64,000 nucleotides of DNA from positions 89,600-153,599 of the forward strand of contig JAZDHZ010000033.1 of assembly GCA_043805415.1 (NCBI GenBank). The letters are read 5' to 3'. The translations under genes were made by a program, and so were the position numbers. Below are positions 3,530-29,851 of the stretch, one piece after another; position 1 is the first letter of the stretch; every line of letters begins with the position of its first letter. Source of the stretch: Candidatus Omnitrophota bacterium (GTDB lineage Bacteria > Omnitrophota > Gorgyraeia > B26-G9). The notes under the pieces were generated by a model that was not told the origin of the DNA, ran no database searches, and saw only the letters and a program-made list of their open reading frames with translations.

Positions 3530-4774
3530 ATGATTTATCATCGGTTAATAACCAATAAAATAGTTGCGCGTTTATCAGATCCTGATATTCTTATCTTAGT
3601 TGGGGCGAGACAAGTGGGAAAAACAACGATATTAAGGCAGATAAAAGAGTCTTTATCTTCTAAAGGAGAACAGACAGAATTTATTAATCTTGAAGATTTA
3701 GAATATGTGAAATTATTAGATGAAAGCCCTAAAAATCTATTCAAAATAATAGCTTTGCCGGAGAAAAAGAAGATTTTTGTTTTTGTTGATGAAATCCAAT
3801 ATCTTAAAAATCCAACTAATTTCCTGAAATATATTTATGATGAGTTTAAGGATAAAGTTAAGCTTATTGTCTCGGGATCGTCAGCGTTTTATATTGATGA
3901 AAAATTTAAAGATTCACTTGCGGGAAGAAAAATTATATTTCCCGTCCATACTCTCAGTTTGCCGGAAATGCTTATTTTTCAGGGGCATGAGGATTTAGCC
4001 GAAAAAACAGCGTTTAAAATAAGGTCTAAGAATATATTCTTGGAGGATTTTCCGCTTAAGGAAAAAGAAAAGGTTACTGCTTGTATCAACAGTCTTCTTA
4101 TCTTTGGAGGGTATCCTCGGGTTGTTTTAGAAAAAGATGTTTCCAGGAAAAGGGAGATAATAGAAGAAATAGCTTTATCTTATATAAAAAAAGATGTGCT
4201 GGAAGCAAATATTAAGAGAACTAATAAGTTTTATGAACTTTTTAAACTGCTAAGTTCTCAAGTAGGAAGCTTGCTTAATGTTAATGAACTTTCTAATACA
4301 CTTAATATATCTCAGACTTCCTTAAATAATTATTTGCATGTAATGAGAAAGTCGTTTCATATTGTTCTTATTCGGCCGTTTTATAAGAATTTGAGGAAAG
4401 AATTAACTAAAATGCCCAAGCTATATTTTATGGATTTGGGATTGAAGAATTTTTTTCTTAAAGATTTTACCCCGCTTGCCTTGCGTGAAAATCCTGGGTT
4501 TTTATACGAAAATTTTATATTTAAGCAATTCGCGGAATTGTTTTCCCTTGACGATATAAAATTTTGGAGGACACAAACTGGTAACGAAACAGATTTTATT
4601 TTAGAAAATAAAACAGCTTGTGAAGTAAAATATAATATTAATAATTTTTCAGTGGCAAAGTATAAAATGTTTTTGAATAGTTATGATGATTTTACTCTAA
4701 ATGTAATATATCATACAGGGATAGTTAAAGATAATGTCCTTAAAGATAAGCGGTTCAATTTTATAAGACTGTAA
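3530..4774 (+). CDS. AAA+ superfamily ATPase (AAA_14 / DUF4143 type, COG1373-like)
   Basis: Walker A ILILVGARQVGKTT and Walker B-like FVFVDEIQY. The C-terminal region is typical of DUF4143 ATPases. Confidence 0.7.
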   Translation: MIYHRLITNKIVARLSDPDILILVGARQVGKTTILRQIKESLSSKGEQTEFINLEDLEYVKLLDESPKNLFKIIALPEKKKIFVFVDEIQYLKNPTNFLKYIYDEFKDKVKLIVSGSSAFYIDEKFKDSLAGRKIIFPVHTLSLPEMLIFQGHEDLAEKTAFKIRSKNIFLEDFPLKEKEKVTACINSLLIFGGYPRVVLEKDVSRKREIIEEIALSYIKKDVLEANIKRTNKFYELFKLLSSQVGSLLNVNELSNTLNISQTSLNNYLHVMRKSFHIVLIRPFYKNLRKELTKMPKLYFMDLGLKNFFLKDFTPLALRENPGFLYENFIFKQFAELFSLDDIKFWRTQTGNETDFILENKTACEVKYNINNFSVAKYKMFLNSYDDFTLNVIYHTGIVKDNVLKDKRFNFIRL

Positions 4775-8245: not shown

Positions 8246-8754
8246 TTGGCATATTTTTATTAAATAGGGTATAATTATTATGTAATATGAGTACAACTAA
8301 ATTTCCAAAATGCGATTTATGTTGTAACCATAATTAGAAAAAGGCAAACCTCACGTGAGTGGGGGGCGTCCCAAGAGTCGGATGGATTAAGTAAGACAAA
8401 GGGACCTTGAAAAAAAAGAACGCTATAATATATAAAATATTTTTCAAGGCAAAGCTACGGGTCTAAAAGGGAAAATTGTAAATGGATTTTATTTGTTTTC
8501 AAGTTAGATAGCCGGGCTACCGAAAAATGGTGAACAATATTCCAACCGAACTATCTGGGACAGATGGATCGGTTTTATTTTATATAGGGTTTGAAAATGC
8601 AGAAGGCAATTAATATCTGCAGAAAGGAGGCGCAACTGATAAAATAAACCTGCTGATTTTAGGTTTGTGGGGTCAGAAGCAGTCCTATAATCAGTCAAAC
8701 TGGGAATAAACAACATGGATAAAATTTTAGAGCGAAATTCTTGGGGAAGAATTA

Positions 8755-8790
8755 GCTTGACAGGAAAACATTGTTTTGATAAATATATAT
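8755..8790 (+). promoter_or_regulatory. Putative sigma70-type promoter (TTGACA-N17-TAAATA) upstream of the orphan pilin gene
   Basis: A TTGACA hexamer sits about 55 nt upstream of the pilin ATG with a 17-nt spacer to a TA-rich -10 element. The GGAGG RBS follows. Confidence 0.35.
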
Positions 8791-8810
8791 ATATAACTGG
8801 AGGAAATAAA

Positions 8811-9224
8811 ATGAATAGAAAAGGTTTTACACTTGTTGAACTTTTGATGGTAGTTATCATCATTGGTATATTGGTAACGTTGGCTGTTCCAAGTTATTAT
8901 AAGTCAATTGAAAGAGCAAAAGGCGGTAAAGCAAAATCATCTTTACGTACTATCACTAATGCTCAAATACAGTATAGAGCGCTTAATGATACATATGTTA
9001 ATGGTGCTGATTTAACTTTATTAGCTGATGTTGATTTGCCTGCGGAATTACAGGATGGAGCTACTGGAGATGGAGATTGGACATATGCATGTACTTCTAC
9101 TGATATCACTGCGGATGTTCTTACTACAGCTACAAGAAATCTTGGGCCTTATGCTGGTGATACTGTAACAATGGATCAAGATGGCTTCTATATTAATGTT
9201 GATGCCCATCAAGAATGGAACTAA
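8811..9224 (+). CDS. pilA: type IV pilin / prepilin-type N-terminal cleavage-methylation domain protein (candidate major pilin); start refined to the internal Met after a GGAGG RBS
   Basis: Class III signal peptide: MNRKG|FTLVELLMVVIIIGILVTLAVPSY (G-F cleavage site, Glu at +5, hydrophobic alpha1 helix). The track ORF 8715-9224 has an unlikely 5' extension. Confidence 0.8.
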   Translation: MNRKGFTLVELLMVVIIIGILVTLAVPSYYKSIERAKGGKAKSSLRTITNAQIQYRALNDTYVNGADLTLLADVDLPAELQDGATGDGDWTYACTSTDITADVLTTATRNLGPYAGDTVTMDQDGFYINVDAHQEWN

Positions 9225-9260: not shown

Positions 9261-9322
9261 TGATGCCACTGATTTATTCGTTTAAAGATTTATTAAATGA
9301 ATAAATCAGTGGTTTTTTTAAA
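9261..9322 (+). terminator. Rho-independent terminator after the pilin gene
   Basis: Perfect 14-bp inverted repeat ccactgatttattc ... gaataaatcagtgg followed by tttttttt. Confidence 0.75.
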
Positions 9323-9380
9323 CTTATCGAAAGTGTTTGTTTAGTTAGGGGTTTAACGAATTAATTGAGGAGGCGAAATA

Positions 9381-10487
9381 ATGCGGATAATTGCGGTAGC
9401 TAATCAAAAAGGCGGTTGCGGTAAAACAACGACATCAATTAATTTATCTGCTTGTTTAGCCGCGCTTAAAAAAAATGTTTTGTTAATAGACTTAGATCCA
9501 CAGGGACACGCGAGTTTGGGGTTAAATATCCAGCCGCAGGATTTATCAAAAACCATATATAATGTATTGACCACAGATAGCGAAGCCAAATTCCGGCTTG
9601 ATGAAGTTATTATCCCTATATCTGAAAATCTTGATCTGGCTCCGGCAAATATTTTGTTATCCGCGATTGAGCAGGAACTGTCTGGAAAACCAGAAAGAGA
9701 AGCAAAATTATTTCAAGCAATATCTTTAATGGTAAGTAAAAAAACATATGATTATGTAATTATTGATTGCTCTCCAAGTTTGGGTCTTTTGACTTTTAAT
9801 GGATTGCGTGCTGCTACTGAACTGATTGCTCCGGTGGACACTGGATTTTTCTCTTTGCATGGCATAAGCCGTTTACTGGAAACTGTCAATCTTATTGATA
9901 AACGCTTGAATTGTCAGATAAAAGTAAAAGCATTGATCACAATGTTTGATTCCAGAACTAAATTTTCCCATGAAGTAAAAGACGAAATTTATAAATATTT
10001 TTCAGGCAATGTTTTTGAAACAGTAATTCATAATAATGTTAGAGTAAAAGAATCTTCAAGCTATGGGGTACCTGTCGCGGCTTATGATAAGCGCTGCCGA
10101 GGGGCACAAGATTACAGCGCATTAGCCAATGAAGTTGAATCTCCGATGAGCAAGGAAAAAGCTAAAGATAAAACCAGCAGCGCTTCTGAGAAAATAACAT
10201 CTTTTATTCAGGAAGTACAGCAGGTCAAAAAAGGCACAGTAGTTACTTTTAATTCTCTGGACGCGAAAAATGTTGAAATTGCCGGTGATTTTAATAACTG
10301 GGTTAGTTCGGTTGATACTAAACTTGAACGGATTGATAATGGTGTATGGGCTAAAGTGATTCATCTTAAACCCGGTGCTTATAAATATAAATTTGTTGTT
10401 GATGGACAATGGATAACTGATCCCAATAATCCTAAGCTGGAAATTGACGAAGTAGGTAATAAAAATTCGATTTTAGAAGTTAAATAA
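9381..10487 (+). CDS. Soj/ParA-family P-loop ATPase fused to a C-terminal CBM48 (AMPK beta glycogen-binding-domain-like) carbohydrate-binding module
   Basis: Deviant Walker A NQKGGCGKTTTSINLSACLA...LLIDLDPQGHAS is almost Soj-like. The C-terminal 90 aa (VVTFNSLDAKNVEIAGDFNNWVSS...YKYKFVVDGQWITDPNNPK...NSILEVK) closely parallel the AMPK beta GBD/CBM48 signature GSFNNW...YKFFVDGQW.HDP...NNIIQVK. Confidence 0.85.
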   Translation: MRIIAVANQKGGCGKTTTSINLSACLAALKKNVLLIDLDPQGHASLGLNIQPQDLSKTIYNVLTTDSEAKFRLDEVIIPISENLDLAPANILLSAIEQELSGKPEREAKLFQAISLMVSKKTYDYVIIDCSPSLGLLTFNGLRAATELIAPVDTGFFSLHGISRLLETVNLIDKRLNCQIKVKALITMFDSRTKFSHEVKDEIYKYFSGNVFETVIHNNVRVKESSSYGVPVAAYDKRCRGAQDYSALANEVESPMSKEKAKDKTSSASEKITSFIQEVQQVKKGTVVTFNSLDAKNVEIAGDFNNWVSSVDTKLERIDNGVWAKVIHLKPGAYKYKFVVDGQWITDPNNPKLEIDEVGNKNSILEVK

Positions 10488-10507
10488 AAAAACTAGGATT
10501 ATGGTTT

Positions 10508-11425
10508 ATGAATAAATTAAAGAAGTTGGGTAAGGGATTAGAAGACATTTCCTATTTGTTTCTTTCTCCGGAGCAAGAAGATACTATTCAAGAAGAGTCC
10601 ATGGCTGAAAAAAAGAAAATTTTAACTGAAACTATTGAGATTACGACAAAAAACATTTGTTTAATCGGCAATAGCCATGATTCGCGAGATGCTTTTTTAG
10701 TGATTAATTTATCATTAGCTTTGGCTAGACTGGGGATGCGTATCGCGGTAGTTGATATGGATGAGAAGCTTCCTTGTCTAAATTTTTTATTAGGAAAAAG
10801 CGCTAACAATGGATCGCAAAATAATGATCAGGAAATTGTTCGCCAAGGGCCTTTTGGCGTAAAGCTGGCAGGGCTAAATGAGTCTCTGCTTGAAAATATG
10901 TTGGTTGATTCTGTTGCTAGAAAAACAATTATGCTGGAACTGAAAAAAATGGAAGAAGAAGTTGATCTTGTGCTGATTAGTGTATCACAAGATAGCCTTT
11001 ATTATATGAATCCATTGCTTAGAAAATCAATAGAAGAATTTCTAGTTTTTGTTTCTCCGGATAAAAACTCAATGCTTAATTCTTATAAAGTTGTAAAAAC
11101 CATTTTTTCTAATAACCCGGTTGCTAAAATTGGTACGATTATAACTGATATTGAACACATGTATGAAATTGACGCGGTGTTTAATAAAATGTTTTCCGCG
11201 GTAAAGAAATTTCTGGTTAAAGAGCTGTATAAATATGGATTTCTTTTTAAACTAAAACAGGAAATTAATAACAACGCGAATATCGCTTCTTTTTATGACG
11301 CGGATTTGACGGCTTGCATCTCAAATATCGCGCAGATTATTATATTGCGCTTGAACCTTGCGGAAAATGTTAAATCAAGCGGGGAATTATTTAAAAATGT
11401 TTTTAATGAGTTTGGGATAAATTGA
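10508..11425 (+). CDS. ParA-fold protein with degenerate (inactive) Walker A and an N-terminal ParB-like LGKGLEDISYLFL peptide
   Basis: Residues about 50-100 (ICLIGNSHDSRDAFLVINLSLALARLGMRIAVVDMDEKLP) align to the ParA P-loop region, but KGGxGKT is replaced by GNSHDSRD. A Walker B-like VDLVLISVSQDS is retained. N-terminal KKLGKGLEDISYLFLS resembles the ParA-activating N-terminal peptide of ParB/Spo0J (GLGKG..AL). Confidence 0.55.
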   Translation: MNKLKKLGKGLEDISYLFLSPEQEDTIQEESMAEKKKILTETIEITTKNICLIGNSHDSRDAFLVINLSLALARLGMRIAVVDMDEKLPCLNFLLGKSANNGSQNNDQEIVRQGPFGVKLAGLNESLLENMLVDSVARKTIMLELKKMEEEVDLVLISVSQDSLYYMNPLLRKSIEEFLVFVSPDKNSMLNSYKVVKTIFSNNPVAKIGTIITDIEHMYEIDAVFNKMFSAVKKFLVKELYKYGFLFKLKQEINNNANIASFYDADLTACISNIAQIIILRLNLAENVKSSGELFKNVFNEFGIN

Positions 11426-11432
11426 GGCTGTT

Positions 11433-12128
11433 ATGACAACGATATTTCACAACGCGCAAATTAATAAAGAAAAACTCAGACAGATTATTTTAAAAAATCC
11501 GCAATCTCTGCTCGCGGGATTAAGTTTTATTGATTTAGAGATGGCTACGGATGAGTCTGGAGTCATTGATTTCTTAGGAGTGGATATAACTGGGCGCATG
11601 GTGGTTGTGAATTTTGATACCCAGGCTAATGACCAGATGCTCATAGAAATATTGTCTCAAATTCAATGGCTCAAAAAAAATGAAGGATTAATCAAAAGGT
11701 TATTTTTTAGTGAGAGCGTGGATTTTGAACAAGCGCCTCAAATGCTTTTGGTTTGTCCTGTTTTTTCCAATAAAATCCAATCAGCGGTAAAACAATTGAC
11801 GGATAAAGATATAAAACTTTTAAAATTTAAATATATTGTCTCAAACGCTGATGACGCGATAATCTTTGACGAGGTATTTTCCAGTATAAATTCAGCCTCC
11901 GCGCCAGCTTTAAAAACTCAACTATCAACTGACCGGGAAAGTATAATGGTTGATCGCGCTGCTTTAACCAAGCACGCGCCGCTAATTAAAAAGACGGTAT
12001 CAGAAATAAGTGAAGACGCGAAAAAAGAACAATCTCCCCTATATGATGTGATTACTCTTACGCCGGAAGAGATTACGGAATTCATGGATTTTAATATAGC
12101 CTTGGCACAGAGCCAAGCAGCTGATTAA
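11433..12128 (+). CDS. hypothetical protein (no recognisable domain); coding likely from position in the operon and start overlap context
   Basis: A 231-aa ORF that starts 8 nt after the upstream stop. No motif could be assigned by eye. Confidence 0.4.
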   Translation: MTTIFHNAQINKEKLRQIILKNPQSLLAGLSFIDLEMATDESGVIDFLGVDITGRMVVVNFDTQANDQMLIEILSQIQWLKKNEGLIKRLFFSESVDFEQAPQMLLVCPVFSNKIQSAVKQLTDKDIKLLKFKYIVSNADDAIIFDEVFSSINSASAPALKTQLSTDRESIMVDRAALTKHAPLIKKTVSEISEDAKKEQSPLYDVITLTPEEITEFMDFNIALAQSQAAD

Positions 12129-12231
12129 GAATAAAACTCTAACCGATTATATAGCTGATCAAATCCTAAATTAAAACCTGCCTGATAATGATTATTAAAT
12201 TTACTACGCAAGTTCTTAGAGGTGAGAAAAT

Positions 12232-12987
12232 ATGCAAGGTGTAAATAGATCATCATCGATCTATAAAATAAATAATTTACTTCCAAACAATATTATATCC
12301 GCTTTTTCCATAGGGAAATTAAATTATGATTATCGTGCTGGGAATGAAAGTGAAGTTCTAAAAAATAGAAAAGATTTTTTTTATCAAGCAGGACTTGCGC
12401 TTGATACTGCTGTTTTTCCCCAACAAGTTCATAAAGCAAACATTCTAAAGGTTGAGCAAAAAGACAAAGGACGTGGCGCGTTTTCTTTCGCGCAGGGCAT
12501 CCCCCAAACAGACGCGTTGATAACTAACGCGAAAGGGATCGCGCTCTGCCTGCTTAGCGCTGATTGTTTGCCGATTATTTTCTATGAAGCAAATGGCAGG
12601 GCAATTGGGATCGCGCATGCCGGATGGCGGGGAATACACGCGGGGATAATTGAAAAAACAATCTTGGCCATGGCCAATGAATTCGCGATTAATCGCGAAG
12701 ATATTAAAGCGTTTTTTGGCCCGGCGATAGGGAGCTGCTGCTATGAAGTTGGCCCTGAGTTTTTAGATATTTTTCCTGAGAATATTAGCGCGCGAAATAA
12801 TAAAACATACCTGGATATTAAAAGCTTAGCTCGGATAAAATGTCTTAGTTCTGGGATTTTTCAGGATTCAATAAATGACGTATCTATTTGTACCAAATGC
12901 AGTAATGACACATTTTTCTCTTATAGATCCGGAGATAATCTCAATCGCCTAATCAGTATTGTGGCTATTGGTGAGCAATGCGGATAG
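12232..12987 (+). CDS. pgeF: peptidoglycan editing factor PgeF / YfiH (DUF152, laccase-domain purine nucleoside phosphorylase family)
   Basis: Family-typical motifs CLLSADCLPIIFYE, IGIAHAGWRG, GPAIGSCCYEVG, and a C-terminal Cys cluster. Confidence 0.8.
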   Translation: MQGVNRSSSIYKINNLLPNNIISAFSIGKLNYDYRAGNESEVLKNRKDFFYQAGLALDTAVFPQQVHKANILKVEQKDKGRGAFSFAQGIPQTDALITNAKGIALCLLSADCLPIIFYEANGRAIGIAHAGWRGIHAGIIEKTILAMANEFAINREDIKAFFGPAIGSCCYEVGPEFLDIFPENISARNNKTYLDIKSLARIKCLSSGIFQDSINDVSICTKCSNDTFFSYRSGDNLNRLISIVAIGEQCG

Positions 12988-13046
12988 ATAGCAATTTCCG
13001 GCTTAGGGAGCTATTTTTTATTTTGACTAATTATCTGCTTGACATT

Positions 13047-13080
13047 TATATGTATCTGTAGTAATTTCTTTAAATAGATA
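13047..13080 (+). promoter_or_regulatory. Putative promoter (TTGACA ... extended -10 TGTAGTAAT) for the Lys-rich protein gene
   Basis: The hexamers sit about 16 nt apart in the AT-rich region upstream of 13105. Confidence 0.3.
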
Positions 13081-13104
13081 ATATCTTTTAAATTAACTAA
13101 AAAA

Positions 13105-14988
13105 TTGAAAAATATGACAAAAAAAATAAGTTTCAAAAAACAAGCAAAAGCTAAAAATACTGTTGCGAAGAAAATTAAAACAGTAGAAAAAAAAGCTTTA
13201 AAAATCAAGGTTGTGAAAACTGCGAAGCCTGCGCGCAAAAAATTAGGTAAGGGCTTGGAAGATATCTCAACCTTGTTTTTGTCTGATATTAAAAAAGACG
13301 CGGTAATTGCTAAGAAAAAAACAATAAAATCCGCGGCTAAAAAAAGTGTAATGCCAAAGGTTAAAAAAGTAAAAAGCGCAAGTGTTAAGACATTAGGCAT
13401 TGCTATAAAAAAATCTCCTAAAAAAATCATTGCAAAGGTTGCTAAAAAACCAGCGGCAGCAAAGGAAATCGTTGCTAAGACTATTGCAAAGGTTGAAACA
13501 AAACCAGCAGTATTAAAGGAAATCGTTGCGCATAAGACTATTGCAAAGGTTGAAACAAAACCAGTGGCAGCAAAGGAAATCGTTGCGCATAAGACCATTG
13601 CAAAGGTTGAAACAAAACCAGCAGTATTAAAGGAAATCGTTGCGAATAAAACTATTGCCAAGGTTGAAAAAAAGGCAACTGCAGTAAATGATAATGTTCC
13701 TAAAAAAACTGTTGCTAAACTTGCTAAAAAAATAGCTGTAGTAAAGGAAAGTATCCCGGAAAAAGTAATCGCGCGTGTTGATGCGAAATTAGACGCGGCA
13801 AAGGATAAAAATCCTGAGAAAACTATGGCTTTAACTGATAAAAAAACTGTAAAAGAGACAACAGGTAAAACACTTGAAAAAATTGCAGTAAAACAAGAAG
13901 AAGCAAAACAAGCAACTTCCAAACCAATTATGAAAATAACAGAGGTGGTAGGGATGGGAACGTTAAAAAAGTCTTCGAAAGCGGTTAAAAAACCAAAGCA
14001 GGATAAACCAGCAGAAAAAAAGAGTACTAAAACAAAAGAGAATAAAAAAACACAAACCTTAGGCCCAATCAGTGATCTGAAGACTTTGTTTAAGAAGAGA
14101 AAAACAGCCGGATTAACTGTTGAGCCGCAGAATATTCAAACAGAGCAAGTTATTGAGGATAGCAAATTTTTTGTTAGTAAGGAAACTGTAAGTCGGATCG
14201 CGGAAGATGAATTTTGTGATTTGCCTGAAGGCTACGGTGATAATAGAATTGTTATTCAGGTTAGGGATCCGTATTGGTTATTTGCTTATTGGGAAGTTTC
14301 TCAGAGAAAATTAAGTTCAGTTGTGGAGAAATATGGTAGTGCTATCCATAACGCAAAAAGAGTACTACGGGTTCATGATATTACATCGGTTGCATTCAAT
14401 GGAAAGAATTCAAACAGTTTTTTTGATATAGCGATTAATGATGTTGCCAAGAACTGGTATGTAAATGTCGGCAATCCTGGGAGAAGTTATTGTATTGATC
14501 TGGGGCTTGTCTTAGCTGATGGGCGTTTTGTCGTGTTTGCTCGTTCAAATTTTGTGACAACTCCGATTGATGGCCCAAGTCTAATAACTGATGAAGAGTG
14601 GATGATTGTTGAAGATGATTTTAACAAGCTTTATGGATTATCTGCTGGATTGGGGATTGGCCTGAGTTCCGGAGAGTTGAGAAGACAAATAAAAACAAAG
14701 ATGAAGAATTTATCATCAGGGATATTGAGTTCACCTGGGGTGACAACAGTGTCTCCGCGTCGTAATTTTTGGATGGTTGTCAATACTGAGCTAATAGTTT
14801 ATGGAGCAACTCAACCAGGTTCTGAACTTACAGTGCAGGGAAAACCGATTAAATTAAATGAAGATGGAACATTTAGTCTTCGTTTTGCCTTGCCTGATGG
14901 AGAGCAGGTCATTCCGGTTCGGGCGGTTTCTCCGGATAAGGTTGAAGAACGGGTAATTACTCCTGTGGTCAAAAAAAACACGGTGTAA
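13105..14988 (+). CDS. Lys/Ala-rich (histone H1-like) protein with a ParB-like LGKGLEDISTLFL peptide, four ~20-aa tandem repeats and a C-terminal DUF4912-like globular domain + beta-sandwich tail
   Basis: Residues 40-60 ARKKLGKGLEDISTLFLS match the motif of the 10508 protein. Repeats KEIVAHKTIAKVETKPAVL x4. C-terminal RIVIQVRDPYWLFAYWEVS...NWYVNVGNPGRSYCIDLG looks like the DUF4912 signature. The opposite-strand ORF 13011-13922 is a low-complexity artefact. Confidence 0.6.
   Translation: MKNMTKKISFKKQAKAKNTVAKKIKTVEKKALKIKVVKTAKPARKKLGKGLEDISTLFLSDIKKDAVIAKKKTIKSAAKKSVMPKVKKVKSASVKTLGIAIKKSPKKIIAKVAKKPAAAKEIVAKTIAKVETKPAVLKEIVAHKTIAKVETKPVAAKEIVAHKTIAKVETKPAVLKEIVANKTIAKVEKKATAVNDNVPKKTVAKLAKKIAVVKESIPEKVIARVDAKLDAAKDKNPEKTMALTDKKTVKETTGKTLEKIAVKQEEAKQATSKPIMKITEVVGMGTLKKSSKAVKKPKQDKPAEKKSTKTKENKKTQTLGPISDLKTLFKKRKTAGLTVEPQNIQTEQVIEDSKFFVSKETVSRIAEDEFCDLPEGYGDNRIVIQVRDPYWLFAYWEVSQRKLSSVVEKYGSAIHNAKRVLRVHDITSVAFNGKNSNSFFDIAINDVAKNWYVNVGNPGRSYCIDLGLVLADGRFVVFARSNFVTTPIDGPSLITDEEWMIVEDDFNKLYGLSAGLGIGLSSGELRRQIKTKMKNLSSGILSSPGVTTVSPRRNFWMVVNTELIVYGATQPGSELTVQGKPIKLNEDGTFSLRFALPDGEQVIPVRAVSPDKVEERVITPVVKKNTV
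13445..13685 (+). repeat. Four tandem copies of a 60-bp coding repeat inside the Lys-rich gene
   Basis: aaggaaatcgttgcgcataagactattgcaaaggttgaaacaaaaccagc... is repeated head-to-tail with a few substitutions. Confidence 0.85.
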
Positions 14989-15020
14989 GTGCTGGAATCC
15001 TTTAACATGCTTTTTAATCG

Positions 15021-15058
15021 CGCCGGAATGAGTATTAACATTCCGGCGTTTTATTTTT
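15021..15058 (+). terminator. Rho-independent terminator after the Lys-rich/DUF4912 gene
   Basis: cgccggaatg-agtattaa-cattccggcg followed by ttttattttt. Confidence 0.8.
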
Positions 15059-15185
15059 AGCAGTCAAAATCGCTTGAATTCTTCAGAGTACTATGCTAGT
15101 ATAAGAATGTTATTTTAAATTAATTATAAACCTTAAATCTTAAAGGTTTTCCGCAAAAAAGCCACTGGGTATTATAGGGGAAAAT

Positions 15186-16766
15186 ATGGAAAAAGGATAT
15201 CTTTGTATTGTTTTACATGGGCATTTACCTTTTGTTCGTCATCCTGAGCACGCGAATTTCTTAGAAGAAGAATGGCTTTACGAGGCTATAACTGAGACAT
15301 ATATTCCATTGCTTAGTATATTTGATAAGTTGATAGAAGACGGAGTTAATTTTCGGATTACCATGGGTGTATCTCCGCCATTAATATCAATGCTTCTTGA
15401 TCCTTTATTGCAGCATCGTTACATAATGCATATAGAGAAATTAATCGAATTGGCAAGTCGTGAGGTTGAAAGAACAAGATGGCAGCCGGAATTTAATAAG
15501 CTGGCTTTAATGTATCTAAGTAAATTTAATCTTGCCCGATATTATTTTGCCGAAAAACACCGGGGAAATCTTTTAGAGGCATTTAAAAGAATTCAGGATG
15601 CCGGAAGATTAGACATCATGACTTGCGGCGCTACGCATGGGTTTTTCCCATTGATGGATACATGTAGAGATTCAATTCGGGCACAGGTAAGAGCCGCGGT
15701 TGAGCAATATAAAAAAGTATTTCAGCGTCAACCAAAGGGCATTTGGCTGCCTGAGTGTGGATATCATCCTGGTGACGATGAAATCCTGCGGGAAAACGGA
15801 TTAAGATATTTCTTTAGTGATACCCATGGGGTACTTCATGGTACTCCGCGGCCCAAATATGGTGTTTTTGCTCCGGTTTTTTGTAAGTCCGGAGTTGCTT
15901 GCTTTGGACGGGATCTGGAGTCTTCAAAACAGGTTTGGAGCGCTAAGCAGGGATATCCTGGAGATTACAATTACCGGGAATTCTATCGGGATATTGGTTT
16001 TGATCTTGATTTTGATTATATAAAACCGTATATTCATCCAGATGGAATCAGAACAAATACAGGAATAAAATACTATCGGATTACCGGGGAAACCGATAAT
16101 AAACAGCCGTACAATCAAGATGTTGCTATGCAAACAGCGGCATCGCACGCGTCTAATTTTATGTTCAACCGGGAAAAACAGGCGGAGTATGTGAAGGACA
16201 TAATAAAAAGAAAACCGATTATTGTCGCTCCCTATGACGCGGAGTTATTTGGACACTGGTGGTATGAAGGCCCGGATTGGCTTAATTTTTTAATTAGAAA
16301 AATTGCTTTTGATCAAAAAAATATCAAACTTATTTCGCCATCGGATTACTTAGATGAATATCCGAAAAATCAAGTTATTACACCTTCACTTTCCAGTTGG
16401 GGATATAAAGGTTATGCCGAGTTTTGGCTGGAAGGTTCAAATGCCTGGGTTTACAGGCATTTACATAAAGCTTCTGAGCGGATGAGTGAATTAGTTAAGC
16501 TTTATCCCAATGCCGGCGGTTTGACGCTTAGGGCGCTGAACCAGGCTTTGCGTGAAGTATTACTTGCCCAAAGTTCTGACTGGGCTTTTATTATGAAAAC
16601 CGGGACACATGTTTCTTATGCTGTGGATAGAACCAAAAAACATGTGCTTAATTTTACAAAATTATACAATCAGATAAAGGCAGATAATATTAAAGAACAG
16701 TGGCTGAGTGAAATTGAGTCAAAAGATAATATATTTCCTGACATTGATTATCATTACCATTCTTAA
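15186..16766 (+). CDS. glycoside hydrolase family 57 protein, 1,4-alpha-glucan branching enzyme type (DUF1957-containing)
   Basis: N-terminal GH57 signature YLCIVLHGHLPFVRHPE and ...CGATHGFFPLM match Thermus/Thermococcus GH57 branching enzymes. Length about 525 aa. Confidence 0.88.
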   Translation: MEKGYLCIVLHGHLPFVRHPEHANFLEEEWLYEAITETYIPLLSIFDKLIEDGVNFRITMGVSPPLISMLLDPLLQHRYIMHIEKLIELASREVERTRWQPEFNKLALMYLSKFNLARYYFAEKHRGNLLEAFKRIQDAGRLDIMTCGATHGFFPLMDTCRDSIRAQVRAAVEQYKKVFQRQPKGIWLPECGYHPGDDEILRENGLRYFFSDTHGVLHGTPRPKYGVFAPVFCKSGVACFGRDLESSKQVWSAKQGYPGDYNYREFYRDIGFDLDFDYIKPYIHPDGIRTNTGIKYYRITGETDNKQPYNQDVAMQTAASHASNFMFNREKQAEYVKDIIKRKPIIVAPYDAELFGHWWYEGPDWLNFLIRKIAFDQKNIKLISPSDYLDEYPKNQVITPSLSSWGYKGYAEFWLEGSNAWVYRHLHKASERMSELVKLYPNAGGLTLRALNQALREVLLAQSSDWAFIMKTGTHVSYAVDRTKKHVLNFTKLYNQIKADNIKEQWLSEIESKDNIFPDIDYHYHS

Positions 16767-16772
16767 AAACAA

Positions 16773-16990
16773 AAGCAGTTATGAATTACTAGTTATGAGT
16801 TACGAGTGAAAAGCAAAGAGCTGAAACAGTTCGTAAAGGCCAAAGGTCAATATTCAATAGCTAATGGTCGATAGAAAAAAAAGAAAGAAAAAAGCATATT
16901 GAATTATTTATCATTTAGTGTTTTTTCGCGATACGCGATACGCGCGACGCAATACAGAAAACAGAAGACAAATGTTTTCTGTTTTCTTTA
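16773..16990 (+). repeat. Composite intergenic repeat element, copy C (AGCAGTTATGAATTACTAGTTATGAGTTACGAGTGAAAAGCAAAGAGCTGAAACAGTTCGTAAAG + CGCGATACGCGATACGCGCGACGCAATACAGAAAACAG hairpin module)
   Basis: Shares both modules with copies at 6543-6622 and 8131-8245. Ends in the inverted repeat cagaaaaca...tgttttctg. Confidence 0.7.
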
Positions 16991-23732: not shown

Positions 23733-25385
23733 ATGGCTTTTTTTAGAACCACCGTAGGTCTATATATAGGTCCTAAAACTGTACAAATTGCCCAAATGCA
23801 AGCAATCGCGGGTAAGATACAGCTAACCAATTTTGTTCATGTCGATATATTCGATGGAGAACAATCCGAATCAGCCGATAAAGAGGCGCTGATTCTCTCT
23901 GCCCTCAAAAAAGCGGTAAATAAATCAAAAATTGATCTTAAAAGAGTTAATACAGTATTAATGCCAGGTATGGTATTATTACGTTATTTTCAAATGCCGA
24001 GAATTAGCGCCGAAGAGCTTGAAGAGGCGGTAAGATTTGAGGCAAGAAAATATATTCCTTTTCGTTTAGAAGAAGCGGTAACTGGTTTTTACATTCTGAA
24101 AGAAGATCAGGAAAAGAAAAAACTGGGAATCCTTTCTTTAGTAACAAAAGAAGAATCAATTAAAAACCACCTGACAATTCTCCATAAAGTTGATATCCAG
24201 CCAACGGCTGTGGAAACTGCCTCTTTTGCTTTGCTGCGTCTTTTGGAATATTCTGGAGATATCGAAAGAGATAAATCTAACGCGGTTTTGTATCTTTATG
24301 CCCAAAGAATAAATATTATAATCCTTAGAAACAGTATCCCTTATTTCGTGAGAGATATTTCTTTGGCAAAAAAAGAAGAATGGATAGATGACGAAACTGC
24401 TGAATTTTTAATGGGAGGAAAGATTAGTTCCGCTGACAGCCGGATAGTAACTCTGGAAAATATGATCAGTGAATTACGTATTTCTTTTGAATATTATAAA
24501 AAAGAGTTGGGAAAAGAAAATGTAAGTAAGATGATTTTGTGCGGAGAAGTTGATGATTTTGATGATTTAGAGCTTGTGAGCAAAGCTGCTCAAGATCAGC
24601 CGGATAATCCTTGTCCCTTGAGTGTGTTTTTAGAAAAACAATTTGATATCCCAGTTAGATTGGTTGATCCGCTAAAGAATATTGTTAGCCCTAAGGCAAA
24701 ACCCTTGCCGTATACTTTCCCAATGCTTGCCGTTACTATTGGGGCCGCTTTAAGAAACTTAAGTAAATCTACTGTGGAAATAGATCTTTTTCGTGCCAGA
24801 AAAAAAACAAGTTTAAAGGCTAAAGTCCTTATTACGAAAATGATCGGCATGGAAGTTGGCGCGCTTTTAGTTTGTTTTATTATTATGTTTATAGTATCTT
24901 CGGTGTTTATTTCCAGAGAAAATAATTTGCTGGAACAAGAAAAAAGATCAGCGCCAAAATTTATGGATTTAAGCCATTTTAGTGAAGATCAGTTAAAAAC
25001 GGGTGAGCAGGAAATAAAACAGAGAATTAATGCTTTTAATAAAATTGTTACAAATAGGTTTGTAGTCACTGATAAATTAAGCGCTTTATCAAAAATAATT
25101 CCTGATGGAATTTGGATGGATAAGTTCATTTTTTTAGTTTCGGCTAAAGAAAAAAATTATGTTGATCGTAGTCTTGAGCTTTCGCTATCGGGTTTTATTT
25201 ATACTGATCAAAAAGGTATGGAAATTGAAATGGTGAATGATTTTACTGAGGCATTAAAATCAAACGATTTGTTTTTTAGCGATTTTAAAGTAATAAAAAC
25301 TGGCTCAGTTGCCCGCGAAACATTTTACGCGATACCGGTTATGACTTTTGAATTGACATGCTTTTCTAAGGCTGGAGAAAAATAA
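23733..25385 (+). CDS. pilM: type IV pilus assembly protein PilM (actin-like ATPase fold) fused to a PilN-like TM/coiled-coil module
   Basis: N-terminus MAFFRTTVGLYIGPKTVQIAQ is typical of PilM. A TM helix (VGALLVCFIIMFIVSSVFI) at about aa 375 is followed by a PilN-like periplasmic region. Length of 550 aa exceeds the usual ~350 aa for PilM alone. Confidence 0.75.
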   Translation: MAFFRTTVGLYIGPKTVQIAQMQAIAGKIQLTNFVHVDIFDGEQSESADKEALILSALKKAVNKSKIDLKRVNTVLMPGMVLLRYFQMPRISAEELEEAVRFEARKYIPFRLEEAVTGFYILKEDQEKKKLGILSLVTKEESIKNHLTILHKVDIQPTAVETASFALLRLLEYSGDIERDKSNAVLYLYAQRINIIILRNSIPYFVRDISLAKKEEWIDDETAEFLMGGKISSADSRIVTLENMISELRISFEYYKKELGKENVSKMILCGEVDDFDDLELVSKAAQDQPDNPCPLSVFLEKQFDIPVRLVDPLKNIVSPKAKPLPYTFPMLAVTIGAALRNLSKSTVEIDLFRARKKTSLKAKVLITKMIGMEVGALLVCFIIMFIVSSVFISRENNLLEQEKRSAPKFMDLSHFSEDQLKTGEQEIKQRINAFNKIVTNRFVVTDKLSALSKIIPDGIWMDKFIFLVSAKEKNYVDRSLELSLSGFIYTDQKGMEIEMVNDFTEALKSNDLFFSDFKVIKTGSVARETFYAIPVMTFELTCFSKAGEK

Positions 25386-25389
25386 TTTA

Positions 25390-25926
25390 ATGGCTATTAA
25401 AAAGATTATTCCACGCGAAATACAACAGGTTTTTATTGTTGGAGCAGTTATTTTTTTGTTTTTATTTTTTTGGGGTGGGCGTGTTTTGCAAAAATATCAT
25501 GACACGCAAATTATGAAGATAAGAAAACAGCGCAAAAGAGTTGAACTTGAAAATGCGGTTGCTGTGCAATTAAGTAAATTGAAAAAGCTTAAAGAAGAAA
25601 TAACAATTATTAATGAAAGTTCACGCTTTTTGGCTGAAATTGCTAAAATGTCTGGACAGCTTAATTTGAAGATTACTTCGATATCAGCGGTTCCTATTGA
25701 AAAGCGTGATGAGTTTATCAAATTAGGAGTAAGTATGGACATTGATACTACCTATCATGAGCTAGGGGTTTTTATGAGCAAACTTGAGTCAGCAGAACTA
25801 TTTATAACTGTTGAAAAATTAGAAATGATTTCTACTATGGGTAAAAATCCCGCGGAAGCGCCAAGGGTAAATGCCAAAATGAATCTTACAACTTTTGTTT
25901 TAACAGATACTATTTTGGAGAGATAA
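25390..25926 (+). CDS. pilO: type IV pilus assembly protein PilO-like (single TM + coiled coil + periplasmic domain)
   Basis: Position between pilM/N and pilP-pilQ. An N-terminal TM (VFIVGAVIFLFLFFWG) followed by predicted coiled coil. Confidence 0.55.
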   Translation: MAIKKIIPREIQQVFIVGAVIFLFLFFWGGRVLQKYHDTQIMKIRKQRKRVELENAVAVQLSKLKKLKEEITIINESSRFLAEIAKMSGQLNLKITSISAVPIEKRDEFIKLGVSMDIDTTYHELGVFMSKLESAELFITVEKLEMISTMGKNPAEAPRVNAKMNLTTFVLTDTILER

Positions 25927-26474
25927 TGCGTAAAATTCTATTATTAGTTTTAGCATTAATCCTGGTTTTTTCTAGCAGCGATTCTTCTATTGCAGCGCCT
26001 GCTAAAAAGCCAGTTGCTAAAAAACCAGTTGCCAAAAAACCAGTTGCCAAAAAACCAGTTGCTAAAAAAGGCGCTGTTGAAGAAGTTGATAAAGACGTTG
26101 GTAAAGACGTAAAAAAAGAAAAATACAAATCCAGAAGTGAAATTAAATATACTGGTTTTGATTCTAAAAGGGATCCTTTTTCGCCTCCTGAAGTTGTTGT
26201 TAAGATGTTAGAAAAACCGGAAGGGATTCCTGGGGCTGAAATCTTGGCCAAGGATATTAAACTGCCTGCGATTGATTTGCAGGGAATTATTTGGTCAAAA
26301 AATATTCCACAGGTGATTATTAATGGCGGGGTGATGAAGGTGGGAGATTTCATTGAGGAGTTTGAAATAAAAGAAATTCGCAGAACTGGTATAATTTTAT
26401 TTTTTAAGGGCAATGATTATTTTATAAAAATGGTTGGTTATACCCAGAAAAATACGAAAAAGAAAAAAAGATAA
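25926..26474 (+). CDS. pilP: PilP-like pilot/periplasmic protein with signal peptide, (AKKPV)4 tandem repeat and a C-terminal beta-domain
   Basis: Signal peptide MRKILLLVLALILVFS. DPFSPP motif. C-terminal LQGIIWSKNIPQVIINGGVMKVGDFI resembles the PilP core. Lies immediately upstream of the secretin, with a 1-nt taATG overlap with pilO. Confidence 0.5.
   Translation: MRKILLLVLALILVFSSSDSSIAAPAKKPVAKKPVAKKPVAKKPVAKKGAVEEVDKDVGKDVKKEKYKSRSEIKYTGFDSKRDPFSPPEVVVKMLEKPEGIPGAEILAKDIKLPAIDLQGIIWSKNIPQVIINGGVMKVGDFIEEFEIKEIRRTGIILFFKGNDYFIKMVGYTQKNTKKKKR
25996..26065 (+). repeat. 15-bp tandem repeat x4-5 (gctaaaaaaccagtt) encoding (AKKPV)n in pilP
   Basis: Direct repeats are visible in the sequence. 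The antisense ORF 25910-26413 is a repeat artefact. Confidence 0.8.
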
Positions 26475-26484
26475 GGAGCTAGAA

Positions 26485-28128
26485 ATGAAAAGGATTTTTG
26501 CGATACTGATTATGTTGTGGCTGAATTTAGCTTTTTTGATGAGTATCCATCAACCTAGTTTTGTTTTTGCCCAAGCTCAGACAGAATATGCGATAGAGGA
26601 TGATTCAGCTGTTGCTGAGGCTGATGATAAAGGTTTGGTTTCTTTAGATTTTAAAGATGCTGATCTAAAAGATGTTTTAAAAGTTTTTTCTCAGCAGTCG
26701 GGTCTAAACTTTGTCGCGGCCAAAAACATAGAAGATAGAGCGATAACTCTGTATATGAATGATGTTTTAGTGGAAGATGCTTTAAAGACTTTGTTAGACG
26801 CGAATAATTTAGGGCTTGAGCAAAATCCAGGCAGTAATATTTTGATTGTCAACGCTAAGCCGACCCTGCCAATCCAAACCATCACTCGAGTTTATAAAGT
26901 TCGATATTATCATGGTAATGTTTCTCCGGGTACTTACCTTTTAACTGAAGGTAAAAATAAGGAAACTAGAGGATCTGGAGATTGGAAAGATATTATTAAG
27001 CCTTTATTGAGTGAGTTTGGGGTTGTGATTGATTATACGAATATCTTAATAATTACAGATGTGCCTGACCGATTTAAACTTATTGATCAAGTAATCAGCG
27101 AAATTGACCGTCCGATTCCTGAAGTAATGCTTGAGGTTGAATTAATTGAAACAACCTCTAATTTTCTGAAAAAAATTGGAATGGAGTGGAGTGAGCAAAT
27201 GATGACATTTTCCGGAGCTTCAACTATTACAGCTTTTCCATTTGTTACAGAAGGTCGCTCGCGTGCGGCTCCAGGTTTTACCACATTGATTACTCCCTTA
27301 GCTAAAGAAGGAGCTTTTTTTAGTTACGGGCTTTTAGATTCAAGTGTTATGCAGTGGACGATGAGGATGTTGCAGACTGATACCAATACAAAGTTTCTCT
27401 CAAAACCAAGAATTCTTGTCCAGGACCGAGAGTGGGCGGAAATTAAAGTAACAGCTGATCAAATTGTTTCCGTGCAATCAACTGTTGATAATGAAACCGG
27501 AGATGTTACAACAAAAGTTGAAAGAATGGAAGTTGGAACAATTTTACGCCTAGTTCCGATTATTAACGCGGAAGAGGGATTTGTTTCAATTCTTTTAGAA
27601 CCAAGTATTTCCCGTCCGGTTCAGTCAGTATTTAAATCTATTGATGATACTAATTTCGTTGATCCGCATTCAAGAAGTATGCGTACTGTAGTGATGTCGC
27701 GTGATGGAGAAACAATAGCAATCGGTGGTTTTATTACAACTGAAGATCAAGAAGTAAAGACTAAAGTGCCTTGGCTGGGAGATTTGCCGCTTCTCGGTAT
27801 GTTTTTCCGTCATACTTCAAATGACCGGGTGGATAAGGAATTGCTGATTTTTGTTACGCCAAGAATTGTAAATCCTTCTGAGAAAGTGGAAATGTGGATG
27901 AGTGATAGTTTTAACAAAGGAGTGCTTGAGCATGCTCAAGGCCGTGAACAATCCGCATCTGCGCCGACGCAAGATAATAATAAAGTTTTAGTAAAGAAAG
28001 GTGATTCTGAAGCGAAAGAAACATCTTTAAATGATATGCCTTTTAGAGAACAGGAAGAAACAATAGACAGTAGTATTGATTTAACTTTACAGAGTTCAAG
28101 TTTGACTACCGTTGATTTAATAAAATAG
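26485..28128 (+). CDS. pilQ: type IV pilus secretin PilQ; start refined to the Met after an AAGGAG RBS
   Basis: Signal peptide MKRIFAILIMLWLNLAFL. N0/secretin_N region (VSLDFKDADLKDVLKVFSQQSGLNFV). C-terminal secretin motif (GETIAIGGF...LLIFVTPRIV). Confidence 0.8.
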   Translation: MKRIFAILIMLWLNLAFLMSIHQPSFVFAQAQTEYAIEDDSAVAEADDKGLVSLDFKDADLKDVLKVFSQQSGLNFVAAKNIEDRAITLYMNDVLVEDALKTLLDANNLGLEQNPGSNILIVNAKPTLPIQTITRVYKVRYYHGNVSPGTYLLTEGKNKETRGSGDWKDIIKPLLSEFGVVIDYTNILIITDVPDRFKLIDQVISEIDRPIPEVMLEVELIETTSNFLKKIGMEWSEQMMTFSGASTITAFPFVTEGRSRAAPGFTTLITPLAKEGAFFSYGLLDSSVMQWTMRMLQTDTNTKFLSKPRILVQDREWAEIKVTADQIVSVQSTVDNETGDVTTKVERMEVGTILRLVPIINAEEGFVSILLEPSISRPVQSVFKSIDDTNFVDPHSRSMRTVVMSRDGETIAIGGFITTEDQEVKTKVPWLGDLPLLGMFFRHTSNDRVDKELLIFVTPRIVNPSEKVEMWMSDSFNKGVLEHAQGREQSASAPTQDNNKVLVKKGDSEAKETSLNDMPFREQEETIDSSIDLTLQSSSLTTVDLIK

Positions 28129-28150
28129 GTGTTTTTACACAGGTGAAATT

Positions 28151-29851
28151 ATGATTAAATCTAATTTGAAATTAGGTGATATTTTAATTAAACAAGGATT
28201 GCTCTCTGAAGAGCAATTGATTGCTGTTTTAGATGAACAAAAGGAATCAGGAGTTAAGCTGGGAGAAATTTTAATTCAAAAGAAATTTGTTTCGGAAAAA
28301 GATATAGCAGGTGCTCTTTCTAAACAAATGGGCATTTTATTCGCTTCAATTGAAAAAGGTTTATTGCGTCCGAACCTTCATCAGGAACTTGAAAAAATAA
28401 TTCCTGAGGACTACGCGATATATCATCGAACGATTCCGCTTTCGAGACATAGTAATAATATTACCATCGCAATGGTTGATCCATTGGATATTATGACCAT
28501 TGATGATGTTATGAAGATGGCTGGTTGTGATGTTAATGTTGTAGTAACGACCAGCAGTGATATGGACAAGGCAATCAATGACTTTTATAAAAGCAAGGAT
28601 ATGGAAAAGAAAAATATCCAGGAAAAGTTTATATTAATGGATGGGGATGAAGTAAGAGATCAAAGAGAGACTGATGTTCGCGATGTGGTTTCGGAAGCGG
28701 ATGCCGCGCCAGTTGTTAAGTTTGTTGATATTATCTTAAGTGACGCGATAGAACAGGGAGCATCGGATATTCATATTGAACATTATGAAGAAAGAGTAAG
28801 TTTAAGATACAGGATTGATGGGGTGCTTTATGACGCGAATGCTCCTGATATAAAAATGTATTTCGCGATTATTTCTCGGATTAAGATTTTAGCTAAAATG
28901 GATATTGCTGAGCGCCGCCTTCCTCAGGATGGCGGATTTTCGATTGCTTTTGGTGAAAAATTTATTGATGTCCGCGTTTCAAGTATTCCCGCGATATTTG
29001 GTGAAAAAATTGTTATGCGTTTATTAGATCAAGCAAAACTTCCTTTGGAATTTAAATATTTGGGTTTTGACGAGCAGGATTTAAAATTGCTGAGAAGGGA
29101 AATTTTTAAGCCATACGGGATGGTTTTTGTTACAGGTCCTACGGGATCAGGAAAATCCACGTCCCTTTATACGATGTTAAACGCGATAAAAAGTCCGCGT
29201 AAAAATATTATTACTTGTGAAGATCCTGTTGAATATAAACTCGATGGGATCAATCAGGTGCAGGTTAAGCCGCTTATTGGTCTAAATTTTGCCAATACCT
29301 TAAGAGCTTTTTTAAGACAAGATCCAGATGTTATTATGGTTGGAGAAGTCAGAGACTTAGAGACAGCTCAAATGTGTATTCGCGCCGCGTTAACGGGTCA
29401 CTTGGTTTTAAGTACTTTGCATACTAATGACGCGCCGACTGCTGTTACCAGAATTATGGATATTGGAATAGAACCTTTTTTACTAGTTTCCGCCTTAAGG
29501 CTTGTTGTTGCCCAGAGGTTGATCCGAAGGTTGTGTGAAAAGTGTAAGCAGCCTGTAGCTAATCCTGGAGTAAAGTATAAAGACTTAGATTTGGAAGGAA
29601 ATACTATTTATGAGTCTCAGGGTTGCGAGGAGTGTCGGTTTACTGGGTTTAAAGGCAGAATTGGAATATATGAGCTTTTGCCGATTAATGAGGAAGTTAG
29701 AAATATGATTTATTATCGTAAGTCCAGTGATGAAATTAGAAAAAGAGCAGAAGCTACCGGTATGCGCAGTTTATATCAATGCGGGATAGCGAAAATGAAG
29801 CAGGGGATTACAACGCTTGAAGAGGTAATTGCAGTTACAGTATCTGATTAA
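28151..29851 (+). CDS. pilB: type IV pilus assembly ATPase PilB (GspE family) with N-terminal T2SSE_N domain
   Basis: Walker A VTGPTGSGKST. Asp box, His box and the tetracysteine motif (CEKC...CEEC). Confidence 0.9.
   Translation: MIKSNLKLGDILIKQGLLSEEQLIAVLDEQKESGVKLGEILIQKKFVSEKDIAGALSKQMGILFASIEKGLLRPNLHQELEKIIPEDYAIYHRTIPLSRHSNNITIAMVDPLDIMTIDDVMKMAGCDVNVVVTTSSDMDKAINDFYKSKDMEKKNIQEKFILMDGDEVRDQRETDVRDVVSEADAAPVVKFVDIILSDAIEQGASDIHIEHYEERVSLRYRIDGVLYDANAPDIKMYFAIISRIKILAKMDIAERRLPQDGGFSIAFGEKFIDVRVSSIPAIFGEKIVMRLLDQAKLPLEFKYLGFDEQDLKLLRREIFKPYGMVFVTGPTGSGKSTSLYTMLNAIKSPRKNIITCEDPVEYKLDGINQVQVKPLIGLNFANTLRAFLRQDPDVIMVGEVRDLETAQMCIRAALTGHLVLSTLHTNDAPTAVTRIMDIGIEPFLLVSALRLVVAQRLIRRLCEKCKQPVANPGVKYKDLDLEGNTIYESQGCEECRFTGFKGRIGIYELLPINEEVRNMIYYRKSSDEIRKRAEATGMRSLYQCGIAKMKQGITTLEEVIAVTVSD

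Follow-up and report, generated by a model that had tools for sequence, protein, structure and literature searches.

A ParB-type peptide marks a lysine-rich DUF4912 protein of an Omnitrophota bacterium as a candidate adaptor between glycogen branching and a ParA-CBM48 ATPase

The cargoes known to be positioned inside bacterial cells are chromosomes, plasmids, carboxysomes, chemoreceptor arrays, flagella, and the divisome. The partner proteins of the ParA/MinD ATPases generally work through a positively charged, disordered N terminus (PMC10241942). In chromosomal ParB, the ParA-binding and ATPase-activating motif is LG(R/K)GL with a central basic residue, which is Lys in about 50% of ParBs and which contacts Tyr81, Glu82, Asp110, and Glu117 of ParA; Arg238 of ParA mediates non-specific DNA binding (PMC12462528). 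For polyhydroxybutyrate (PHB) and polyphosphate granules, only tethering is known, through the histone-like domains of PhaM, PhaF, and AlgP, and a 2025 review of organelle positioning poses the involvement of ATPases as a question and does not mention glycogen (PMC13052382). Here we describe a locus on 64,000 nucleotides (nt) of DNA (the window) from Candidatus Omnitrophota bacterium (GCA_043805415.1, contig JAZDHZ010000033.1, forward strand 89,600-153,599; the metagenome-assembled genome has a G+C content of 37%). In this locus, the gene for a lysine-rich protein with a DUF4912 domain (PF16258) lies between a ParA gene cluster and the gene for a GH57 1,4-alpha-glucan branching enzyme (Table 1). 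The ParA in question is fused to a carbohydrate-binding module (CBM) of the glycogen-binding type (ParA-CBM48), and in this clade sequence evidence ties the DUF4912 protein to the ParA-CBM48 system, which is apparently undescribed in the literature that we searched. We propose, at a probability of roughly one in two, that the DUF4912 protein is an adaptor coupling glycogen or the branching enzyme to this nucleoid-based ATPase. The literature searches returned no paper on the function of DUF4912/PF16258, on the ParA-CBM48 family, or on ParA-driven positioning of glycogen.

The evidence that carries this proposal is a short peptide. Within its basic, disordered N-terminal region, the kind of region through which ParA/MinD partners act, the DUF4912 protein bears the sequence KKLGKGLEDISTLFLS, which contains LG(R/K)GL with the central basic residue of the ParB motif and which we refer to as the tag. 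A second copy, KKLGKGLEDISYLFLS, is encoded at nt 10520-10567, within the 305-aa MinD/FlhG-like protein whose gene follows that of ParA-CBM48. Across the six frames of the window, no LG[KR]GL site occurs besides these two. The two copies are identical at 15 of 16 residues and show 8 synonymous codon differences, which rules out a recent DNA duplication as their origin; it is strong selection at the protein level that has kept them alike. Among the five full-length orthologues of the window protein (67-70% identity by BLASTP), the tag is 98% identical, against 38-59% for the flanking disordered sequence. At every Omnitrophota locus with ParA-CBM48, the following gene begins with the tag. In one distant lineage (L085), the gene after ParA-CBM48 encodes a different, 190-aa protein that starts MERKRLGRGIEDISNIFIS, and in another (L084) it begins with the variant ..LREISHYFLS and is followed by a NucS-like gene. 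A pattern scan across metagenomes for DNA that could code for LGKGLxDISxLF gave 37 matches, about half of them out-of-frame chance matches; the peptide was found only on 305-aa-type and DUF4912 proteins, and the 305-aa-type gene was preceded by a ParA core wherever upstream sequence was present. No further tagged client protein was found in the window, in 80 related loci, or in this metagenome-wide pattern scan. An earlier note on this DNA had suggested that the DUF4912 protein could connect nucleoid, ParA, and glycogen, and the link to ParA and glycogen is strengthened by the finding that the tag is also the conserved N terminus of the partner encoded after ParA-CBM48.

Comparison with ParB itself shows how far the likeness goes. 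The tag and the ParB motifs (M. xanthus R13 and B. subtilis Spo0J) share the LG(K/R)GL core, followed by hydrophobic positions, in a disordered basic segment, and the presumed cognate ATPase in the window is a close relative of Soj/ParA that keeps Tyr81 and Glu117. In contrast to ParB, the window protein has no match to the ParB Pfam domains (ParB/Srx CTPase, helix-turn-helix, dimerisation) and no GERRxRA box, and its motif is extended (EDIS.LFLS). The window contains no canonical ParB, and GERRxRA occurs in none of its frames.

The ParA cluster starts 3.7 kb upstream of the DUF4912 gene. The core of ParA-CBM48 is very similar to the chromosomal proteins ParA of M. xanthus (8RAY, E=3e-57) and Soj of T. 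thermophilus (3e-41), and its C-terminal 85 aa form an AMPK-beta-type module (AMPK1_CBM, 3.8e-16; CBM_48). The best 120 database matches all share this fused architecture, including those from outside Omnitrophota and those with identities as low as about 45%. Tyr81, Glu117, and Arg238 of M. xanthus ParA are kept in the window protein, Glu82 is replaced by Asn, Asp110 by Leu, and the Motif-2 residue Asn64 by His. In a survey of 115 ParA-CBM48 family proteins, the Walker A lysines and the Motif-2 aspartates proved invariant, with one exception at D60. The position equivalent to Arg238, which binds non-specific DNA, is R or K in 110 of the 115, that of the peptide-pocket residue Tyr81 is Y or F in 113, and Leu at 110 (113/115) and His at 64 (111/115) are signatures of the family. 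The CBM residues aligned with the sugar contacts of AMPK-beta are W and K/R and W in all 115 and N in 108, on a numbering of glucan contacts that we presume from AMPK-beta-cyclodextrin structures. ParA-CBM48 of the window is therefore apparently functional, that is, predicted to be active and to bind DNA and glucan, with a pocket related to yet distinct from that of chromosomal ParA. The protein encoded next to it resembles MinD/FlhG in fold (PDB 4rz2, E=6.7e-7) and is likely a pseudo-ATPase; its gene always comes after ParA(-CBM48), and its annotation goes no further than hypothetical or MinD/ParA family. At five loci (L090, L096, L100, L119, and L120), a tagged protein of the 305-aa type follows a ParA core in which tblastn at 1e-4 found no CBM48, and these may represent a CBM-less or divergent branch of the system.

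The window protein is a member of the uncharacterised DUF4912 family. The domain was found by a hidden Markov model (HMM) search of Pfam at E=7.9e-38 (129.8 bits against a cutoff of 29.4), covering profile positions 1-116 of 118 and aa 377-495 of the 627-aa open reading frame (ORF), and DPxW...W, R, D, and WY are among its residues that vary hardly or not at all. Built from an alignment of 57 sequences, an AlphaFold2 model of aa 340-627 contains two confident beta-sandwich domains with a predicted local distance difference test score (pLDDT) of about 95-98, and a helical linker of lower confidence between them. No solved relative was found in the PDB by sequence or profile search. Relatives of the protein number at least 577 in species-representative genomes, nearly all of them Omnitrophota; the broad first alignment was too divergent for locus retrieval, and the loci were retrieved with a narrower family alignment. 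A GH57 gene with a BE_C domain lies directly downstream of the DUF4912 gene in all 80 of the retrieved related loci (GTDB Omnitrophota), and a GH57 branching enzyme is likewise encoded downstream of DUF4912 in three of four loci from distant lineages, where the other neighbours are unlike. Both the C-terminal DUF4912 domain and the GH57 association that the earlier note had put forward without searches are thus borne out. Two of the three distant loci (L087 and L088) add a second, larger GH57 gene after the branching enzyme, followed in L088 by a glycogen phosphorylase gene; these are compact alpha-glucan gene clusters with the DUF4912 gene at their head. We infer that the C-terminal half binds either the GH57 enzyme or the alpha-glucan that it makes.

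At the N terminus the family varies: some members have a short basic segment, others a long tail rich in K and A, and others again a Rho_N (helix-extended-helix) domain. Two distant relatives (P0042 and P0064) carry a match to the HC2 Pfam model, and the Rho_N form corresponds to the cyanobacterial "Rho-like" protein (PMC13613805). The window protein agrees with the family, the Rho-like form included, in its HMM match, its layout (a basic or nucleic-acid-binding-type N terminus, DUF4912, and a C-terminal beta-sandwich), and its GH57 neighbour. Its sub-clade differs in having a disordered N-terminal region of 244-382 aa rather than about 85 aa, with 19-aa repeats and the ParB-type tag.

In line with the coding sequence and strongly basic first 300 or so residues that had been read from the letters alone, the ORF is uninterrupted on the + strand (13105..14988), and aa 1-330 are 28% K, 13% A, 10% V, 9% T, and about 4% P, with an isoelectric point (pI) of 10.4 and a net charge of +65; the pI of the last 294 aa is 5.4. 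Translation most likely starts at ATG 13114, since this start agrees with the deposited model P0001 (624 aa, 100% identical) and with the N termini of orthologues (MTKK...). In a full-length AlphaFold model, aa 1-375 are disordered (pLDDT<50), with small rises in confidence at the ParB-like peptide, where aa 49-52 form a short helix, and again at aa 322-324. The earlier note had regarded this region as typical of H1/Hc1-type binders. Homology to H1, Hc1, or Hc2 is not supported: a search of the N-terminal 336 aa against Pfam at E<=10 gave no match to Linker_histone, Hc1, or HC2, the sole match being Abi_2 (E=6.5). Like these proteins, the region is rich in lysine and alanine and has a high pI. 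It differs from them in having no winged-helix domain, less K and P, and many V, I, T, and E residues, and its composition (K/A/V/T/I, P 4%) is only loosely that of an H1 tail. Since the region is disordered in the model and has no meaningful Pfam match, "histone-H1-like" describes its composition and not its family. Two further linear motifs are conserved within it (Table 1), of which LGPIS(D/E)LKTLF resembles the tag minus its central Lys and is retained in a DUF4912 protein that has no tag (L008). An antisense ORF (13011..13922, - strand, 303 aa, rich in F, L, V, and A) is simply the lysine-rich coding sequence read on its complementary strand and almost certainly no gene.

Part of the basic region is a tandem repeat array. 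Its core (13429-13673) has a period of 57 bp, 4.4 copies, and 86% match in Tandem Repeats Finder, and at the protein level it consists of three near-identical 19-aa units and one 18-aa unit, followed by degenerate units. The consensus of the near-identical units is TIAKVETKP(AVL/VAA)KEIVA(H/N)K. The earlier note had described four exact repeats of about 20 aa and 60 bp; a tandem repeat is indeed present, but the period is 57 bp and 19 aa, and no two units are identical in their DNA, the closest pair (u2 and u4) being 2 nt apart. The charge of the core is mild, at +1 to +6 per 30 aa. As the note had also predicted, the copy number differs among close relatives: the orthologues P0002 and P0004 are shorter than the window protein by 18+19 aa, exactly two repeat units, and in P0005 and P0006 the units are about as many but have diverged. 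The near-identical units stem from a 114-bp double unit that was amplified recently, and since a short-read assembler may miscount such a unit, the copy number in this genome is uncertain by about two units.

The ParA cluster (ParA-CBM48, the 305-aa protein, the NucS-like protein, and Cu-oxidase_4) lies upstream of the DUF4912-GH57 pair at 16 of 82 loci, all in one Omnitrophota clade, and is absent within 10 kb at the other 66. Tagged DUF4912 proteins are encoded at 11 of these 16 loci and at none of the 66, and the N-terminal region is 244-382 aa long in the tagged proteins and 35-114 aa at loci that have no ParA cluster. In a neighbour-joining tree built on the C-terminal halves of the DUF4912 proteins, the basal ParA-adjacent lineages have short untagged N termini and the tagged proteins form an inner group, within which the untagged L008 and the 5'-truncated L015, where no tag was detected, are nested. 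The order of events was therefore that an ancestral DUF4912-GH57 pair was juxtaposed to the ParA cluster, after which the disordered N terminus expanded and the tag was gained.

Taken together, these data suggest the following model. The C-terminal half (DUF4912 and the second, FN3-like sandwich) is the ancestral part and would grip alpha-glucan or the branching enzyme. The other half, about 375 aa long, is disordered and strongly basic; it expanded partly through the 19-aa repeats, gained the tag LGKGL..I..LF, and would serve as a tether. ATP-bound ParA-CBM48 dimers would be positioned on the nucleoid, and the DUF4912 protein, anchored to glycogen particles or the branching enzyme, would hold out the tag on its long basic tether, which reaches and possibly binds the nucleoid. 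Binding of the tag to ParA would stimulate the ATPase, with the outcome that glycogen particles or the branching machinery are kept on the nucleoid and spaced along it. The working logic would combine that of the McdB-carboxysome type with static histone-like tethering of the PhaM, PhaF, and AlgP kind. By analogy with McdB-type partners, a cargo-bound protein with a basic, disordered N terminus would contact a nucleoid-bound ParA-type ATPase. Unlike that system, there is no sequence relationship to McdB, the cargo would be glycogen or the branching enzyme, the ATPase itself bears CBM48, and one tag is found on two different proteins. The analogy with PhaM, PhaF, and AlgP lies in lysine/alanine-rich repeats joined to a granule or enzyme module and in variation of repeat number. 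Here too there is no detectable homology, and the basic part is N-terminal in the window protein and C-terminal in theirs; the tag suggests a ParA partner, whereas no ATPase is known for them. A further step of the proposal, that glycogen particles or the branching machinery are an actively positioned ParA cargo, with DUF4912 as the adaptor and the tether also holding the particle on the nucleoid, is possible but should be taken as tentative.

Several observations weigh against the adaptor proposal. Five loci with the ParA cluster encode an untagged DUF4912 protein, and the tag sits within the protein, preceded by a leader of 41 aa, whereas ParB and the 305-aa protein carry theirs at the very N terminus. 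Since Glu82 and Asp110 of the pocket and the catalytic Asn64 have become N, L, and H, the tag may dock differently. ParA-CBM48 loci of other phyla have no adjoining glycogen genes, and because ParA already bears a glycogen module, the system could in principle do without a separate adaptor for its cargo. Fold searches with the C-terminal half gave generic FN3 matches and none to a carbohydrate-binding module, and neither fold nor sequence matched known alpha-glucan-binding CBM families; glucan binding by DUF4912 is therefore a conjecture, and the domain may bind the enzyme instead. Finally, because adjacency and tag each arose once, 11/16 against 0/66 amounts in essence to one evolutionary event and carries little statistical weight. 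What makes the argument strong is the identity and conservation of the peptide, not the counts of co-occurrence.

With these points in mind, the DUF4912 protein might instead be only an accessory or regulator of the GH57 enzyme, or a coat of glycogen granules, with a basic region that tunes solubility or condensation and a peptide that has no ParA role or binds, for instance, the 305-aa pseudo-ATPase. The DUF4912-GH57 pair is ancestral and wider than the tag, with short untagged N termini and no ParA cluster nearby at 66 of 82 loci, and distant phyla retain the pair without the tag. By analogy, PhaM also activates the polymer synthase, PHB synthase (PMC13052382). Such a role would, however, leave unexplained both why a 16-aa peptide is so conserved in a fast-evolving disordered region and why it is identical to the tag of a ParA-adjacent partner across lineages, and we consider it unlikely. 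Rather more doubtful is a static granule-nucleoid tether of the PhaM/PhaF/AlgP type, with the lysine-rich half on DNA, the C-terminal half on glycogen, and no ATP-driven movement. The net charge of +65 over 330 aa and the K/A-rich repeats would suit such a tether, as would the K/A-rich tails matching the Hc2 Pfam model, or Rho_N domains, that relatives bear at the same position; repeat-number variation in algP is noted through a reference in the 2025 review (PMC13052382). Yet there is no homology to a histone-like family, the repeat core is only mildly basic, and the conserved tag of ParA-binding type and the ParA-CBM48 neighbour would be left unaccounted for. Static tethering is compatible with the adaptor model and may form one part of it.

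It is also conceivable, if improbable, that ParA-CBM48 serves primarily in chromosome segregation or at the division site, with its CBM as a glycogen sensor, and that the DUF4912 protein is a competitor or regulator of ParA that depends on glycogen status, not a cargo adaptor. The CBM of AMPK beta is a sensor module in eukaryotes. The close relationship of the core to chromosomal ParA/Soj, the lack of a ParB gene in the window, and the ParA-CBM48 loci of other phyla that have no glycogen genes would all fit this idea. Against it, the gene after ParA was never ParB in the loci examined but a tagged MinD-like or other protein, and the Leu signature at position 110 suggests a system orthogonal to chromosomal ParAB. 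Lastly, the earlier note had named an assembly artefact in the basic region among the findings that would refute it, and near-identical 57/114-bp units are prone to mis-assembly in a short-read metagenome. We give hardly any credence to such an artefact, or to the idea that the stretch is of low complexity and non-coding: the reading frame stays open for 1.9 kb, the repeat units are unlike each other, and the architecture is common to orthologues from independently assembled contigs. The uncertainty is one of copy number. The adaptor model is the reading that we prefer.

Table 1. Features of the DUF4912 locus, by position in the window
Feature	Position (nt)	Strand	Remarks
Terminator-like hairpin, strong	9266-9312		Ahead of ParA gene
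ParA (Soj-like, intact deviant Walker A) fused to AMPK-beta-type glycogen-binding module (CBM48)	9381..10487	+	Pfam, fold
305-aa MinD/FlhG-like protein, no Walker A	10508..11425	+	Tag at aa 5-20; directly after ParA-CBM48
NucS-like protein	11433..12128	+	Weak PD-(D/E)xK nuclease-fold match; third conserved gene of ParA cluster
Cu-oxidase_4 (YfiH/PgeF-type) gene	12232..12987	+	Between ParA cluster and DUF4912 gene; syntenic only in this Omnitrophota clade
DUF4912 protein, coding sequence	13114..14988	+	624 aa from ATG 13114; mechanical ORF opens at TTG 13105 (627 aa)
Lysine-rich leader	13114..13236	+	aa 1-41; K 38%, net +16 (computed on aa 1-42); pLDDT<50
ParB-type putative ParA-binding tag	13237..13284	+	KKLGKGLEDISTLFLS; aa 42-57, within disordered N-terminal half
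57-bp (19-aa) tandem repeat array	13429..13824	+	Core 13429-13673, degenerate units to ~13824
Conserved linear motif KPIMKxTEVVxMG	13921..13959	+	aa 270-282, in disordered region; 82% identity over aa 269-287 among orthologues
Conserved linear motif LGPIS(D/E)LKTLF	14059..14091	+	aa 316-326; short predicted helix; 88% identity over aa 316-328
DUF4912 domain (PF16258)	14233..14589	+	FN3-like beta-sandwich with one inserted helix, pLDDT ~95
C-terminal FN3-like beta-sandwich	14788..14976	+	Glucodextran_B just below threshold, aa 563-619, 26.5 bits against cutoff 27
Intrinsic-terminator-like hairpin and T-run	15020..15059	+	Strong hairpin (15020-15049), 11-bp stem, 7 GC pairs; just past DUF4912 stop codon
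GH57 + BE_C 1,4-alpha-glucan branching enzyme	15186..16766	+	Conserved neighbour downstream of DUF4912 gene
Terminator-like hairpin, strong	16956-16987		Past GH57 gene

The hairpins in Table 1 come from consensus scans, which found no terminator of comparable quality in the stretch from 9312 to 15020, so that the DUF4912 gene may share a transcript with the ParA cluster and not with the GH57 gene. A NucS-like gene also occurs in other lineages (L084, 10149-10724), and the classic ExK catalytic signature is not obvious. Upstream of the ParA cluster, a prepilin-type protein with an N_methyl motif is encoded on the + strand at 8715-9224, followed by the strong terminator at 9266-9312. Elsewhere in the window, also on the + strand, are a gene for an ATPase with AAA_14 and DUF4143 (3530-4774), set amid sugar-nucleotide and NAD synthesis genes, and a type IV pilus or type II secretion cluster (23733-29851) with a PilM-like protein, a secretin, and a T2SSE ATPase.

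The locus unites a histone-like basic tether, a tag of the ParB type that activates the ATPase in ParB, and a ParA fused to a glycogen module with invariant sugar-contact residues. All of the components are small soluble proteins, so that the proposal is testable in vitro or in E. coli although the host is uncultivated. If the proposed connections are real, glycogen would be a new class of cargo for the ParA/MinD ATPases; and if glycogen is indeed actively positioned, no ATP-driven partition system would have been known before for a storage granule made of polysaccharide. The two tagged proteins would then be a natural case of one "luggage tag" common to two clients, and DUF4912, a family almost always encoded beside GH57, would have its first, testable function.

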